Program-made: the position numbers and the translations under genes
The notes under the pieces: model-generated
The model's database searches: none
Seen by the model: only the letters and a program-made list of their open reading frames with translations
Told to the model about the DNA's origin: nothing
Part shown: positions 47,175 to 59,530 of the stretch, piece after piece
Layout: each line of letters begins with the position of its first letter
How positions within the stretch are numbered: position 1 is the first letter of the stretch
Assembly: GCA_965235115.1 (NCBI GenBank)
Contig: OZ249436.1
Location: 27,406,001 to 27,470,000 of the forward strand
Source of the DNA: Laetmonice hystrix
Taxonomy: Eukaryota
Length of the DNA stretch: 64,000 nucleotides
Reading direction: 5' to 3'

Positions 47175-48441
47175 GATAACTACCCTAATGTAGATCAACC
47201 AGAACCCCCCCACCCCTTTCCGATAACTACCCTAATATAGATCAACCAGAACCCCCCCCCCGTCCGATAACTACCCTAATATAGATCAACCAGAACCCCC
47301 CCTTTCCGATAACAACCCTACTATAGGTCAACCAGAACCCCCCCCCCCTTTCCGATAACAACCCTACTATAGGTCAACCAGAACCCCCCCCCCCGTCCGA
47401 TAACTACCCTAATATAGATCAACCAGAACCCCCCCCCCCCTTTCCGATAACAACCCTACTATAGGTCAACCAGAACCCCCCCCCCCTTTCCGATAACAAC
47501 CCTACTATAGGTCAACCAGAACCCCCCCTTTCCGATAACAACCCTACTATAGGTCAACCAGAACCCCCCCCCCCTTTCCGATAACAACCCTACTATAGGT
47601 CAACCAGAACCCCCCCCTTTCCGATAACAACCCTACTATAGGTCAACCAGAACCCCCCCCCTTTCCGATAACAACCCTACTATAGGTCAACCAGAACCCC
47701 CCCCCTTTCCGATAACAACCCTACTATAGGTCAACCAGAACCCCCCCCCGTCCGATACCAACCCTACTATAGGTCAACCAGACCCCCCCCTTCCGATAGC
47801 AACCCTACTATAGGTCAACCAGAACCCCCCCCCCTTCCGATAACAACCCTACTATAGGTCAACCAGAACCCCCCCCCTCCGATAACTACCCTAATATAGA
47901 TCAACCAGAACCCCCCCACCCCTTTCCGATAACTACCCTAATATAGATCAACCAGAACCCCCCCCCCCTTCCGATAACAACCCTACTATAGGTCAACCAG
48001 AACCCCCCCCTTTCCGATAACAACCCTACTATAGGTCAACCAGAACCCCCCCCCCCTTCCGATAACAACCCTACTATAGGTCAACCAGAACCCCCCCCCC
48101 CCTTTCCGATAACAACCCTACTATAGGTCAACCAGAACACCCCCCCCCCCTTCCGATAACAACCCTACTATAGGTCAACCAGAACCCCCCTTCCGATAAC
48201 AACCCTACTATAGGTCAACCAGAACCCCCCCTTCCGATAACAACCCTACTATAGGTCAACCAGAACCCCCCCCCCCCGTCCGATAACAACCCTACTATAG
48301 GTCAACCAGAACCCCCCCCCCCCCCCGTCCGATAACAACCCTACTATAGGTCAACCAGAACCCCCCCCCCCCCCCTTCCGATAACAACCCTACTATAGGT
48401 CAACCAGACCCCCCCCTTCCGATAACAACCCTACTATAGGT
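47175..48441. repeat. Poly-C minisatellite (~44-52-bp unit, ~27 copies), left part of the array interrupted by the LINE
   Basis: Constant ccgataacaaccctactataggtcaaccagaa followed by a variable Cn and tt(t)/gt. A minor variant reads gataactaccctaatatagatcaacc. Confidence 0.97.
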
Positions 48442-48513
48442 TTTTTTTTACATCTTTTATTTATCCTGGATAAATACAGAATCGGCTGACAGCCGTTTTT
48501 CGCTGCACTCCAG
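48441..48513 (-). other. LINE 3' end: predicted stem-loop, AATAAA signal and 8-9 nt poly(A)
   Basis: The minus strand reads CTGGA-GTGCAG-cgaaaaa-CGGCT-gtc-AGCCG-att-CTGTAT-tta-TCCAG-gataAATAAAagatgt-A9. This gives three nested pairings, the middle one with G:U pairs. Confidence 0.7.
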
Positions 48514-48780
48514 TTAACACAATAAACAATCATCCTTTCTGGTTTTCGTGAAGTGAAAGACTAAACAAATAAGGTGTGGGTTTAAGTACAGCTTAAGTAA
48601 AGGTTAGTAACAGCGATACGAAAAAGATAGTATATTTAATAAATGATATGTCGTATGATTCTCGTAAGCTCAGTGAATGGATATATTCCGTATAACAGGA
48701 TTACCTTGTATATATGTATATATGCTACAGAAGAAATAGAAATCCAACATATCCAATACATAGGGATGTTTAAAGAAGTA

Positions 48781-49812
48781 TTAACCCCTATCGGTCACTA
48801 TTGTTGATTTCAACCACCTTTTCTGTAAGCATTTAAAGTGATCTAGCGATTCTAAATTTCTTAAATATGGCTCCAGGCTATTCCACTCTCTGGCACCTTT
48901 CCATGCAATGCTTCTCTCTACACTAGAAAAGTTTGCTCTAAATGTGCTCATAGTAATTCCATCATATAGTCGTGTTCTCCCGGGCATATTAACTAGATAT
49001 CTCTGTTCTCTGCTACGCTTAAACATAAAATTCCTAAGATGCACTGTTCTTCTGTATTTAAGTAAGGGTAGTTGGGATCGTTGAATAAGTTCTGCTCGAG
49101 GTGTCCTATATGTAGTCCCAAGGCAAACTCTGAGTGCACGATATTGTAGCTTATCCAACTTATCCAAAACCTCATTTGTTGAACTCATGTAGAAAATATC
49201 TCCATAATCAATGTATGGTAGAATTTTGGTTTTATAAATGCAAAACGCCACCTTATCTGTAATGTAAGAGCGAATCTTTTGAAGGACATAGATCTTGTGG
49301 GAGGCTAGTTTAAATATATTTTTAGCGTGAAGACTAAAATTCAGTTTATTATCCAAGATTACTCCCAAATATTTAAATTTCTCAACAAAATGGATTAAGT
49401 CCCCGTTTAAAGTTACCTTAGGTAGCTCTGGTGTATTTAGAAATTTTTTACTGCCAAATAACATACATTTAGTTTTTGAAGTGTTAATCGTGAGTTGATT
49501 TTTCTTACACCAAACATTGACAATATTTAAGTCATGCTGGAGTTTTCTATGGGCCTCGTTAATTGAATCTGCACTAGTACATAATGCCCCGTCATCAGCA
49601 AACAAACGAATGTTGCAGTAGGTAAGTCTGTTTCCTATATCGTTTATGTATATCAAAAAGAAAAGTGGTCCTAGAATTGACCCCTGGGGTACACCACAGA
49701 CTATGGGAAGCTTATTTGACACTGCGCCATTGGCCACAACATATTGCTTTCTATTGGTAAGACAGCTTTTAATCCACATTAGTGTTATACCTGAAAGCCC
49801 TACTTTCTCCAT
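48781..49812 (-). pseudogene. LINE ORF2, 3' part: reverse transcriptase core and C-terminal region, in a different frame from the 5' part
   Basis: WIKSCLTNRKQYV, GVPQGSILGPLFFLIYIND, catalytic FADD, WCKKNQLTINTSKTK, FKYLGVILDNKLNF, ILPYIDYG and LQYRALR are typical of CR1/L2-type RT and its C-terminus. Confidence 0.92.
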
Positions 49813-51628
49813 TTCTCCAAGCCTTTTTTAGGTCCACGAATGCCGCCATTGTACAACACGATTCATTCCACTTCATAAAGATTTCATCTGTTAATTTGGC
49901 TACCGCATTGAGTGTGGAACGCCCTGCTCTGAAACCATCCTGATTATCGTTGAGTATATTGTGTATATCAAAAAAGGCCACGATTCTTGACTGAACGATC
50001 TTCTCTAAAAGTTTGCCAGGAAGTGGCAGTAAAGAAATCGGTCTATAGTTACCCACATCAGTATTCTCCCCACCTTTAAAAAGTGGAACAATTTTAGCAA
50101 TTTTCCATGAGTCTGGGAAGATACCTTTAGAGAGTGAGATATTCATCAATCTCGTAATTACTGATGGTATTGCCAAAAAGGCATCCTTGAGGATGCGGGA
50201 AGACAGGTAATCGATAGAAGAAGCTTTGTAAATATTGATATCTTTACATAATTTCATAATCTCGTCTGCATTGGTTTGTATATCCATAATTTTCGATTCT
50301 ACTTCCTCACCGTCAAAGTCCCAATCCTCATTGAACTGCCTTGCTAACACAGGCCCTATGGCAGTAAAATATTCGTTAATAAAATTAGCCGTTTTAGATT
50401 GGTCAATCATATCTCCCGTTTCCTTATTCACTAGATTTATTATACCCTTAGTATTCGTTTTCGGTAGTAGTGTATTTATACAGTCCCAGAATTTCTTAGC
50501 ATCCCCTTCTTTTTCATTTAGCTTTTCTTTAACAAAGTCAGATTTGGCTTTTTTCAAAGCATTCCTTGTGTGGTTTTTCAGTATTCTCGCTCGGTTCCAA
50601 TCTTCCACAGTGTTTGACCGCTTAGCTTTTTTTCTAGCATTTTCTTTGTCATGTATCAGTTCAATGAGTTCTTTTGTCATCCAAGCATCCCCACGGTCTT
50701 TAATTACCATCTTTTTTAGTGGACACATTGAATTGATGCAATCATAGATATTTGTGAGGATCTTATCCCAGTATGCATCAACATTTTCTTCGTTATCGAG
50801 CTCAGCCCAGTTGTACTGTCTTAGTCTCTGTTGAAAAGTTTCATTGTCATAATTAATGTAAGATCTGCCAAAAGTCGTAATTTTGATGAACGTTTCTTTA
50901 CCCTTCTTTCTGGTAACAAAAATAGCTTCATGATCGCTTACTGCTATATTCAGAGTTCGAGAAGTCTTTATGTAGTCTGAGTTCGTAAGGATTAAATCTA
51001 TGCAGCTATTATTTTTAGAGTATCTTGTAACTGCGTTAATTAATTGCTTGAGACCCGTTAGCGCTTCGAGATCCTTCAAGTATTTTCTATTTAAACATTT
51101 CACATCAGAGTAGTCTATATTATAATCTCCAATTATAAATATATCACTTCGGCTTGCATTCGGTAAGCTGTTGATTTTATCAGTTAAAATCTCACAGAAA
51201 GATTTGGCATTTGATTGGGGCGGGCGATACAATACTCCAACAATAATTTTCCTCATATTAGGTATTTTAACCATTAACCACATAAGCTCAATAGCGTCAT
51301 TGCTTACATTTAAATTTTCCAGTTCAGTGGATGAATAGATTAGTTTGTTACTGATATAGGCAGCAACACCTCCCCCTTTTTTCTTGATCCCTGTTCCACT
51401 TACAGTCCAGTTGCGATCAAGTCTAATAATATCGTATCCTTCTAAATTTAATAACTGGTCTGAATGATTAGATGTTAGCCAAGTCTCTGAGAGGGAGAAA
51501 ATATCAAATTTTGAGTCCTTAACATAATACTTAACTAAGTCGAGCTTATTTGATATACTTTGGCAGTTCACATGACAAATATGAAACCCCCTATGTGATG
51601 TTGGATAGCGACAATCTTCATCCTGCAT
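49769..51628 (-). pseudogene. LINE ORF2, 5' part: apurinic-like endonuclease, linker and start of the reverse transcriptase; leaves frame after VDLKKA
   Basis: APE motifs HVNCQS, SETWL, LYRPP, GDYN, IDLIL, SDH. Pre-RT and RT motifs WKIAKIVPLFKG, NYRPISLLPLPGKLLEKIV, QDGFRAGRST, AFVDLKKA. Homology is lost straight after LKKA (~49820). Confidence 0.92.
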
Positions 51629-51966
51629 TATCTAAGTTATACAACTCTATCATAACCAGTCTGAGTTTTGAGACAATAATTATAGTAACGTAATTAGCGA
51701 CTACTTTCGTATCCAAATAACTTATATACAAGGTGCATTCCCCCGTTATCCATAGGTGTATGTGCAGAGACTGCATCCTATGGATTGAATAATTAAATAG
51801 GAGAAGAAAAAGATTTGCTGTGAGGGTTCAGCGGCATACAGTTAGCAAACTACTGTCCGGTATATTCAGGCTAGTAACCAGTCCACTCTGCCTGTTTAAA
51901 GATTAAAGTTACAAATAGTGACTGAAAAGATCCAATCTCACAGTTTCGGTGAACAGCAGACAGTTC

Positions 51967-53226
51967 CTAGCTAGTGCCATCACGTAGCGCTGAAAGTAGT
52001 TTCCCCAAGGTATTTGTTCCTTTGTAGCTACTAGTCTTGAGCAGAGGAGAGGTAATGGAGCACCCAGCTCCCCAATAGGAGTCCGCGGTGGCCTCAACAA
52101 GGTCAAATCCAGCTGTTGCAAGCAGAGCCTCTCGCAGGGCGGGATGCGAGTTGAACTTTGCCATGAGTGCAGTTTGCATTGTGGGTTCCCGGCGATTAAT
52201 CCATGAGGAGCCCTGCTTTATCTTCACTTTATCCCCGAGTTTTTTTATCCTGGCTGGATCGGTGGATTTCATAATGGCGTCTGCGATTTCATCATTACCT
52301 TCATTTAGTGCTTTCAAGTGCTGAAAGGCTTGCTCAACACATAGGTAGGAGTTTCCATTGACAACAATTTCACCCGGGTAAAAGTTGGATAGAGGAGAAT
52401 AGCGCGATGCAAAAGCGATTTCTTTATCATTAACCTTCAGAGTCTTTGCAGAACTGAGTGACAACCTTTCTGGGAGATGATGAAGAGAATTGTAGGAGTA
52501 GCGCTTGCCGTCCACCGTGCAGTGATCAGATTGAGCCTTGGCCTCGATTCCCTTGCTTTTGGCAAAGTTCACCACTGACCTGATCGCTCCCCTCCTTTCC
52601 TTGATTTGGCTCGGTAGATCCTCGTTTATCCAGATCGTGGGGAGACGTCCCTTAAGTTTTGTCCGGGCCATGAACACAGCGTCGCGATCCAGATGGCGGG
52701 GAAAACGAACGAGTATAGAGCGATGGAGTCCTTTGTGAGGTTTGCCTATTCTATGTATTTTGTCTAGGTCTTTGTCGCCTAGGCCAATTCCCAGTTCTTT
52801 GTTAATTAGGTTAAGGATTATGTTGCGCACGTTTTCAGTTTCAGTTTCAGGAACATTGTCAATAAGGAGGTTATGACGACGGCTGTACAACTCCAGTTGA
52901 GTAAAGTCTTCTCTCAACAATGCCAATTCAGCTTCAAAACATGCTGATTTCCTTTTTTCCTTTTCCAGCTCGGTTTTCAAGGAGGTTATATCTTCAACTG
53001 TAGAGCTGTAGCTGGAGTTTAATTTATCAAGTTTATCCGTGACAGATTTAAGTTCATGTTTAACTTCGAGAGAAGAGCTAAGGAGGATGTCAATTTTCTC
53101 TTCCAGAGATGTTGATGCGCCAGTAGGGTTAGTGTTCAGCAGTACCTGTGTATCATTATCGCTGATCACAGAAGAGTTGGTGGATGGAGTGGTTCTCGTA
53201 GACATTCTTCCTCTGCTGTATGCCAT
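51967..53226 (-). CDS. LINE ORF1 protein (419 aa): coiled coil + L1-type RRM + CTD fused to a C-terminal NADAR (YbiA/DUF1768) domain
   Basis: aa ~40-113 are a heptad-rich coil (LEEKIDILL…LKTELEKEKRK…LALLREDFTQLE). aa ~113-205 carry ORF1p RRM hallmarks (YSRRHNLLIDNVPE, IHRIG, RSILVRF, IWINEDL). aa ~205-250 are CTD-like (CTVDGKRY). aa 270-416 carry NADAR motifs in order: LSNFY, VEQAFQHLKA, IKKLG, W…M…AKF, LREALLAT, LVE…DSYWG, GTNTLGKLLSALR. The frame is uninterrupted. Confidence 0.92.
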   Translation of the reverse strand: MAYSRGRMSTRTTPSTNSSVISDNDTQVLLNTNPTGASTSLEEKIDILLSSSLEVKHELKSVTDKLDKLNSSYSSTVEDITSLKTELEKEKRKSACFEAELALLREDFTQLELYSRRHNLLIDNVPETETENVRNIILNLINKELGIGLGDKDLDKIHRIGKPHKGLHRSILVRFPRHLDRDAVFMARTKLKGRLPTIWINEDLPSQIKERRGAIRSVVNFAKSKGIEAKAQSDHCTVDGKRYSYNSLHHLPERLSLSSAKTLKVNDKEIAFASRYSPLSNFYPGEIVVNGNSYLCVEQAFQHLKALNEGNDEIADAIMKSTDPARIKKLGDKVKIKQGSSWINRREPTMQTALMAKFNSHPALREALLATAGFDLVEATADSYWGAGCSITSPLLKTSSYKGTNTLGKLLSALRDGTS

Positions 53227-53397
53227 GCTTACAAGTGTATCACCAGTTGACGTGTGTATCTTGGGGTGCTATAAATACACATGAAACCTCCGCTGCCGGT
53301 GTGACCCATTCAATCAAGTGTGACTGGTTCAGGTATGGTGTGTTGCCCCATGGCCGCCCAGATCCAAGTCAAGGTAATAGCACCTACCAAAAAGTAA

Positions 53398-53705
53398 CAA
53401 CCAGAACCCCCCCCCCCTCCCTTCCGATAACAACCCTACTATAGGTCAACCAGAACCCCCCTTCCGATAACAACCCTACTATAGGTCAACCAGAACCCCC
53501 CCCCCTTCCGATAACAACCCTACTATAGGTCAACCAGAACCCCCCCCCCCCTTCCGATAACAACCCTACTATAGGTCAACCAGAACCCCCCCCCCCCTTC
53601 CGATAACAACCCTACTATAGGTCAACCAGAACCCAACCCCCCCTCCCTTCCGATAACAACCCTACAATATATTAGGTCAACGAGACCCCCCCCCCCCCCA
53701 TTCCG
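53398..53705. repeat. Same poly-C minisatellite, right part (~6 copies)
   Basis: Resumes at caaccagaacccc, exactly where the left part stopped (…ctataggt). Confidence 0.96.
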
Positions 53706-58434: not shown

Positions 58435-59530
58435 CCTTCTGTACCAAACACCATGGCAAGTTGTCCCCCTTCTGTAGCAAACACCATGGCAAGGTGTCCC
58501 CCTTCTGTACCAAACACCATGGCAAGGTGTCCCCCTTCTGTAGCAAACACCATGGCAAGGTGCCCCCCTTCTGTACCAAATACCATGGCAAGCTGTCCCC
58601 CTTCTGTAGCAAACATCATGGCAAGGTGTCCCCCCTTCTGTACCAAACACCATGGCAAGGTGTTCCCCTTCTGTACCAAACACCATGGCAAGGTGTCCCC
58701 TTCTGTACCAAACACCATGGCAAGGTGTTCCCCTTCTGTACCAAACACCATGGCAAGGTGTCCCCTTCTGTACCAAACACCATGGCAAGGTGTCCCCCTT
58801 CTGTACCAGATACCATGGCAAGGTGTCCCTTTCTGTACCAAACACCATGGCAAGGTGTCCCCCTTCTGTACCAGATACCATGGCAAGGTGTCCCTTTCTG
58901 TATCAAACACCATGGCAAGGTGTCCCCCCTTCTGTACCAAACACCATGGCAAGGTGCCCCCCTTGTACCAAACACCATGGCAAGCTGTTCCCCTTCTGTA
59001 TCAAACACCATGGCAATGTGTCCCCTTCTGTACCAAACACCATGCAAGGTGTCCCCCTTCTGTAACAAACACCATGGCAAGGTGTTCCCCTTCTCTACCA
59101 AACACAAAGGAAAGGTGGTCCCCTTTTCTACCAAACACCATGGCAAGGTGTTCCCCTTCTGTACCAGATACCATGGCAAGGTGTCCCCCCTTCTGTACCA
59201 AACACCATGGCAAGGTGTCCCCCTTCTGTACCAAACCCCATGGCAAGCTGTTCCCCTTCTCTACCAAACACAAAGGCAAGGTGGTCCCCTTTTACACCGA
59301 ACACCAAGGCAAGCTGCCCCGTTCTGAAGGCAAGGTGTCCCCCGTCAGGGCCAGATCCAGGATTCACACTGTGGTTATTTGAGGACGTACATTTGACAAC
59401 TTTTGTTTCTTCTTTCCTTTTTGGGGGCTATTTCTAAGGGGGGTTGCAACCCCTAGACGTCCCCCCTCGGATCCGGCTTTGTCCCTTCTGTACCAAACAC
59501 CATTGCAAGGCGCTCTCCTTTTCTACCGTG
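58435..59530. repeat. Minisatellite, ~33-bp unit x ~27, the last unit(s) separated by a short insertion
   Basis: Unit ccttctgtaccaaacaccatggcaaggtgtccc. It accounts for all ORFs 58349-59437. Confidence 0.96.
59346..59481. mobile_element. Small MITE-like insertion with imperfect terminal inverted repeats
   Basis: Ends cagggccagatcc and ggatccggctttg are reverse complements at 10 of 13 positions. Internal ggggttgcaacccc palindrome. It interrupts the 33-bp minisatellite. Confidence 0.55.

Follow-up and report, generated by a model that had tools for sequence, protein, structure and literature searches.

A NADAR domain on the ORF1 protein of a CR1-group LINE in Laetmonice hystrix, a candidate eraser of base-linked ADP-ribose

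The window analysed here, 64,000 nucleotides of contig OZ249436.1 in the Laetmonice hystrix assembly GCA_965235115.1, holds a LINE whose ORF1 protein (ORF1p) ends in a NADAR domain, and the question raised by this locus is what such a domain does for a retrotransposon. The first-pass annotation had proposed a transposon-encoded eraser of nucleic-acid ADP-ribosylation that serves counter-defence. NADARs are widespread in invertebrates. Their fusion to retrotransposons is not new in kind, as YbiA-family NADARs are in print for ORF1 of several Crassostrea gigas Tx1 LINEs and for the Pol of Ectocarpus Gypsy elements, with RNA processing as the suggested but experimentally unsupported role (PMC12477816). 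The present analysis adds that the fusion also occurs on CR1-group elements, that LINE groups have exchanged it, and that a Gypsy NADAR is found in the same genome, together with data on residues and selection. The best explanation, given a probability of roughly 40%, is that the domain strips base-linked ADP-ribose from element RNA or cDNA.

The element and its ORF1 protein

The element is a full-length CR1-group LINE of ~4.96 kb on the minus strand (48441..53396), with its 5' end in common with one sibling copy (L137) and its 3' end in common with three others (L136, L138, and L139). The 5' UTR (53227..53396) lies upstream of the ORF1 ATG and is 98.5% identical to that of L137. ORF1 (51967..53226) is open and encodes 419 aa, a type II (L1-like) ORF1p with the NADAR at its C-terminus. 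ORF2 occupies two frames, the 5' one (49769..51628) with the APE endonuclease (PF03372, E 5.1e-10) and the start of the reverse transcriptase (RT; RVT_1 positions 6-79), and the 3' one (48781..49827) with the remaining RT (RVT_1 positions 90-205). The frame breaks near 49815-49819, where the window copy was ~29 nt shorter by blastn than L136, L138, and L139, and because ORF2 is split in this way the copy cannot be autonomous. The 3' UTR (48441..48780) carries an AATAAA and a short A-tail. All of these features are on the minus strand. In a DNA search in which 40 of 73 candidates were scored, the family was small and young, with mostly partial copies at 93-100% identity. A look-up of expression listed no RNA source, which speaks neither for nor against transcription.

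The LINE splits a 46-bp satellite, found in the tandem-repeat listing and given without strand, into a left part (47175..48441) and a right part (53398..53698), and a target-site duplication is absent at the junction. The satellite was considered as an insertion target and ruled out, as the 3' flanks of three siblings and one 5' flank differ. The tandem-repeat listing has 49 rows across the whole window; one of these repeats, of 33 bp at 58435-59326, gives rise to open frames of up to 317 aa on either strand, which are likely not genes.

The CR1-group label is based on a short ORF2 (~1000 aa in the group), the lack of zf-RVT, and an RT tree that included no named reference RT, in which the window element stood with the short-ORF2 elements on the 33-row side of a 100/100 split, opposite seven zf-RVT-bearing L1/Tx1-type rows; within the group, the clade may be CR1, L2, Crack, or Daphne. 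Without zf-RVT and outside the L1/Tx1 group, the element is not of the oyster type, which has an L1/Tx1-group ORF2.

ORF1p was modelled with AlphaFold2 over aa 33-419 from a 40-row alignment (pLDDT 95). It consists of a coiled coil (aa ~36-116; 52879..53121), modelled as a single 81-residue helix with hydrophobic residues at 16 of the 23 a/d heptad positions, followed by an RRM and CTD (aa ~119-260; 52447..52872) with fold matches to human L1 ORF1p 2YKP (E 1.4e-7), 2LDY, and 2W7A, and by a YbiA-type NADAR domain of 158 residues (aa 262-419; 51970..52443), all encoded on the minus strand. Coiled coil, RRM, and CTD with an APE-RT ORF2 downstream are the arrangement of type II LINE ORF1ps. Fold matches of the model to the human L1 ORF1p trimer structures 2YKP, 2YKO, and 2YKQ (E 1.4e-7 to 6.5e-6), together with the heptad pattern and knowledge of the family, suggest that the protein would form homotrimers and coat the element RNA. 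The same coiled coil-RRM-CTD core is found in the type II (transposase 22) ORF1ps of CR1 and L2 elements, for which exchange of whole ORF1s between lineages is established; the accessory domains listed for them are PHD, esterase, and zinc knuckles, and the words "macro" and "ADP" are absent from the main text (PMC4120745). NADAR is likewise absent from the main text of a 2026 survey of vertebrate CR1-group elements (PMC13343379).

The NADAR domain and its active site

The first-pass annotation had placed the NADAR at 51979..52419 (minus strand), which corresponds to aa 270-416 of ORF1p, and this call was confirmed, as were its residue numbers E378 and D382. The Pfam model PF08719 matched aa 275-416 with 101 bits (cut-off 35.1; E 9.9e-29), and NCBIfam TIGR02464 scored 115 bits against a cut-off of 73.7. 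Sequence matches in the PDB were the Phytophthora NADAR 8BAU (E 1.5e-13) and E. coli YbiA 2B3W (E 1.4e-11), and both were also matched in fold by the pLDDT-95 model using Foldseek (E 1.3e-9 and 7.2e-9, respectively). TIGR02464 is named for riboflavin-intermediate N-glycosidases, and the passing of its cut-off would fit a domain that is a passenger, or such a glycosidase with no role in mobility. To our knowledge, animals do not make riboflavin. That reading is very improbable given the purifying selection in many families and the retention of the domain through module swaps, both described below.

Aligned with 8BAU, ORF1p has E298, K305, K328, G331, W342, R346, E378, D382, and W385 at the positions of E43, K50, K75, G78, W89, R93, E125, D130, and W133; these residues and the fold are shared with 8BAU and 2B3W. 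Those two are stand-alone proteins, whereas the ORF1p NADAR is fused, its activity is predicted, and it has Asp in place of R79 and Gly in place of D86. Residues were surveyed in 81 non-redundant LINE NADARs, 46 from the same genome and 35 from databases, the latter being about 1 in 4 of the LINE matches there. E298 (52333..52335), equivalent to the distal-ribose ligand E43, was found in 81/81. At K305 (52312..52314), equivalent to the phosphate ligand K50, Lys was found in 72 and Arg in 6 (K/R in 78/81); the equivalent Lys is essential in the E. coli C7 NADAR (PMC11543638). E378 (52093..52095) corresponds to E125, the catalytic Glu that defines the YbiA subfamily, and this position was Glu in 76, His in 4, and Lys in 1. 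D382 and W385 (52072..52083), equivalent to the phosphate ligands D130 and W133, were kept in 76/81 and 77/81, and W89 in 80/81. All six of E43, K/R50, W89, E125, D130, and W133 occurred together in 64 of the 81. With a Glu in the last strand (E378) beside E298 and K305, ORF1p carries the YbiA-subfamily signature.

The four LINE NADARs with His at the catalytic position are L064, L066, L067, and L072; His is typical of phage gp30.3 NADARs. L066 stood apart from the other three in trees, and the change from Glu to His may have arisen twice.

The pyrophosphate set of 8BAU (K50, R79, W89, R93, D130, and W133) is present in five of its six members, the exception being R79, the pyrophosphate shield, which the alignment pairs with D332 (52231..52233). 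This site is R/K in 23 and D/N in 43 of the 81 LINE NADARs, as opposed to R/K in 9/9 bacterial and phage NADARs, and loss of R79 may weaken or alter pyrophosphate binding. LINE NADARs are also net basic, with a mean charge of +3.5 versus +1.0 in bacteria and phages.

The basic charge and the frequent loss of R79 would suit a domain that is mainly a non-catalytic nucleotide- or RNA-binding module for RNP assembly, localisation, or partners, comparable to the PHD or esterase on other ORF1s. Accessory domains are indeed frequent on CR1/L2 ORF1s (PMC4120745), and SNA-3, a C. elegans protein with three NADARs, works in trans-splicing (PMC11125620). Such a role is nevertheless unlikely, as the catalytic Glu is kept in 76/81 and four of the five exceptions are the His seen in phage NADARs, and E43, W89, D130, and W133 are near-invariant despite a mean identity of ~39%. 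The domain looks catalytically intact, and from its fold, its residues, and the activity of the family it is probably an active N-glycosidase.

Distribution, selection, and exchange of the fusion

With ORF1 as the query, 916 candidates were obtained from the same genome; 100 were scored and 100/100 matched, with identities of 31-45% outside the element's own family. The Pfam NADAR model gave 741 candidates, of which 150 were scored and 150/150 were above the cut-off. In 60 NADAR loci picked for variety from these 150, the ORF1 core adjoined the NADAR in 58 and an RT lay downstream on the same strand in 48, the two exceptions being a Gypsy-type Pol (L085) and a rearranged LINE (L063). A search with the ORF1 core only (150 of 517 candidates scored) was used to pick 23 loci that had no listed NADAR and were in none of the earlier lists; on inspection, 19 had a NADAR or broken pieces of one, the core abutted the RT in 2, and neither was the case in 2. 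A nematode NADAR used as the query for stand-alone host NADARs gave a best identity of 40%, and an ORF1 core was present at 20/20 loci examined (150 of 632 candidates scored); a stand-alone host gene may nonetheless exist. Outside the genome, the core lay directly upstream of a NADAR in 92 of the 150 best matches, counted as 50%-identity representatives.

In L126 (2650-5796, minus strand) and L123, the core abuts the RT and both NADAR and APE are gone, probably through internal deletions; core and RT of L126 share one open frame of 1049 aa. In the database protein P0014 (471 aa) the NADAR is central, and the N-terminal part by eye resembles a different LINE ORF1 type, a putative label.

The 62 distinct ORF1s fell into 43 families at <90% NADAR identity, which puts the number of families with the fusion in this genome at 43 or more. 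Mean identity across these families was 0.39 for the NADAR, 0.34 for the CTD, 0.33 for the RRM, and 0.19 for the coiled coil, and no part of ORF1 was better conserved than the NADAR. Across 11 non-overlapping sister pairs, synonymous sites were saturated (pS 0.71-0.92) and NADAR pN was 0.17-0.27. In dozens of families, the NADAR thus evolves under purifying selection. The pairs considered for positive selection were either near-identical or saturated. Purifying selection and repeated capture are not specific to a defence role.

Across 34 elements, NADAR distances correlated better with distances in the ORF1 core (Mantel rho 0.60) than with those in the RT (0.34). L037 (CR1-group) and L039 (L1/Tx1-type) are 61-62% identical in their ORF1 parts and 22% in their RTs, and conversely L041 and L053 have 97% identical RTs and 33-42% identical ORF1 parts. 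Second copies confirmed the L037 and L053 combinations across >5 kb, and further exchanges of ORF1 modules between distant ORF2s were found in L079/L082 and L070/L088. A single clade of the six L1/Tx1-type ORF1s was rejected by the AU test (p 3e-54; 34 rows, LG+G4, group set by the RT tree), and starred branches require at least three changes. The zf-RVT-like matches of L038 and L039 were slightly below the cut-off. The NADAR moves with the rest of ORF1 as one module between CR1-group and L1/Tx1-group LINEs.

The Gypsy-type Pol (L085:3648-8627; G000:C1, ~23.02 Mb) is 1660 aa long and has protease, NADAR, RT, RNase H, and integrase in that order, with His at the catalytic position of the NADAR; a second copy (L141) is 98% identical. 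Counting this Pol, the domain occurs in three groups of retroelements within one genome. As in the oyster Tx1 and Ectocarpus Gypsy cases, a YbiA-family NADAR is thus found on LINE ORF1 and on Gypsy Pol. The differences, compared by description rather than by sequence, are the CR1-group host element here, the ORF1-NADAR module common to the CR1 and L1/Tx1 groups, and the position of the Gypsy NADAR between protease and RT.

A phylogeny suggested by the first-pass annotation for finding the NADAR donor did not recover a donor or a single origin, with 25 of 126 branches starred in a tree of 129 rows (46 LINE NADARs from the same genome, 35 from databases, 34 multi-NADAR, 7 phage, 2 bacterial, and 5 other). 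This tree covers about 1 in 4 of the database LINE matches, and 11/13 bacterial loci were without a full domain by the filter used.

Proposed role, its rivals, and the search for a host writer

Every NADAR assayed in the literature passages cited, whether of YbiA type or other, hydrolysed guanine-N2-ADP-ribose in vitro (PMC11125620, PMC11543638), among them a YbiA from a myxobacterium and each of the four E. coli subtypes (PMC11125620). A sponge NADAR and YbiA types removed guanine- and cytosine-linked ADP-ribose from both DNA and RNA (PMC12945103). The guanine activity in vitro is family-wide and does not identify a physiological substrate (PMC11543638). In the role that we infer, which extends to the in vivo substrate and the part in conflict, the RNA chaperone of the LINE would carry an active N-glycosidase at its C-terminus, and as ORF1p coats the element RNA, many NADAR copies would ride along on the RNP. 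These would hydrolyse ADP-ribose on exocyclic amines (guanine N2, cytosine N4) of element RNA or single-stranded cDNA, where such adducts would stall the ribosome or the reverse transcriptase. Some ADP-ribosyltransferase on the host side would act as the writer, whether dedicated to defence or of general function. The genome has NADAR candidates in the hundreds; nearly all of those examined sit on retrotransposons, which belong to three groups, and evolve under purifying selection, and this points to a host ADP-ribose pathway relevant to mobility.

The same active glycosidase could instead clear a small molecule or RNA-processing by-product near the RNP, such as ADP-ribose-1''-phosphate left by RNA repair, or an immune signal derived from NAD, cADPR-like or otherwise, which would make a base writer unnecessary. 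RNA processing has been suggested for retrotransposon NADARs (PMC12477816), and NADARs have been tied to RNA repair and to low-molecular-weight ADP-ribose derivatives (PMC9503650). RNA-repair genes (tRNA nucleotidyltransferase and an RtcB-like ligase) were close to two of the seven phage NADAR loci (L109 and L110), and the altered R79 site could mean another substrate. A diffusible substrate, however, would hardly explain why the domain is permanently joined to a protein that coats RNA, and no such NADAR activity is described in the available parts of the papers cited; a small-molecule substrate is thus a serious alternative that we still consider on the unlikely side.

Removal of ADP-ribose from proteins (ORF1p, ORF2p, or host factors) or from PARP-modified nucleic-acid ends, in the manner of a macrodomain, is quite unlikely. 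It would fit the PARP exons of the host, the largely mutually exclusive occurrence of Macro and NADAR in animal RNA viruses, read by the authors as a sign of similar targets (PMC9503650), and the result of a macrodomain search of only five short matches (nine candidates) as opposed to 741 NADAR candidates. The NADARs assayed were, however, specific for base N-glycosidic links, with none active on thymidine-ADP-ribose (PMC11125620), and no activity is listed for phosphate-linked ADP-ribose in Table 1 of PMC12945103. Macrodomain-bearing LINEs, considered as a parallel, were rejected on the same five short matches among nine candidates.

Base-linked removal calls for a writer, and the first-pass annotation had proposed a search of the host genome for pierisin-like transferases. 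An exon-by-exon profile search gave no Scabin/pierisin-like candidates in the host, the same model having matched 4/401 bacterial genomes; DarT gave no match from one candidate and ARTC gave no candidates. These negatives are weak because each exon of an intron-split gene was scored by itself, and because the controls for DarT and ARTC matched nowhere. PARP-type exons were the only ART matches found in the host (14 matches of 29 candidates). ZAP reportedly restricts L1. NADAR leaves the guanine-N1-ADP-ribose made by PARP15 intact (bioRxiv 10.64898/2026.03.31.715305), and a writer of the PARP10/15 type therefore fits poorly. PARP1-made cytidine-ADP-ribose in vitro is cited in PMC12945103, so that a PARP writer stays possible; according to the same paper, endogenous G/C ADP-ribosylation may exist undiscovered in eukaryotes. 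The known animal guanine-N2 writers are patchy, with activity in six clams from a screen in which insects, fish, and mammals were also assayed (PMC11209040). E. coli YbiA and the T4 NADAR are active in vitro and gave no DarT1 rescue (PMC11125620), which makes rescue of DarT1 toxicity a poor test for a YbiA-type NADAR.

What stands of the eraser proposed in the first-pass annotation is the intact-looking catalytic site, the purifying selection, and the family activity on guanine-N2-ADP-ribose; its host restriction system is unsupported by the data here, and counter-defence by the NADAR is plausible. The full scenario, that some invertebrates restrict retrotransposons through base ADP-ribosylation of RNA or cDNA by an unrecognised transferase and that a NADAR, spread between LINE clades as an ORF1 module, serves the CR1-group LINEs, L1/Tx1-group LINEs, and Gypsy elements of one genome as the counter-measure, appears doubtful at present. 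If it were true, it would be an enzymatic, transposon-encoded, animal mirror of the bacteria-phage DarT-NADAR conflict. An eraser role by itself, if true, would uncover a previously unrecognised way in which animals control transposons, and if false would still leave a recurrent, unexplained enzyme need of retroelements.

In DarTG1, too, a NADAR erases guanine-N2 ADP-ribose in conflict with mobile DNA. DarG1 is of the BC4488 type, with a catalytic Asp and an N-terminal extension, and is encoded beside its writer, whereas the ORF1p NADAR is of the YbiA type with Glu at 378, its neighbouring gene is ORF2, and no DarT match was found in the genome (control silent). Invertebrate positive-strand RNA viruses likewise have an ADP-ribose-processing domain on a parasite with an RNA stage, and their NADARs are largely exclusive of macrodomains; both domains sit in replicase polyproteins there, in contrast to the RNA chaperone of the LINE. 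The viral NADARs were proposed to oppose host ADP-ribosylation, which is itself a proposal, and retrotransposons are not mentioned in the available text (PMC9503650). In a literature search that covered mainly open-access papers, with neither Repbase reports nor de Souza and Aravind 2012 among them, no proposal of a transposon-encoded eraser against host nucleic-acid ADP-ribosylation was found, and PMC12477816 was the sole link found between NADAR and retrotransposons. A search for viral contigs gave 17 pattern matches, none confirmed, and fold matches to invertebrate RNA-virus NADARs were found in the fold search. Among the multi-NADAR database proteins (P0044, P0069, P0041, and P0015), some are joined to an ADP-ribosylglycohydrolase, microbial PARG, or DNA methylase domain, and one multi-NADAR database protein carries seven NADARs.
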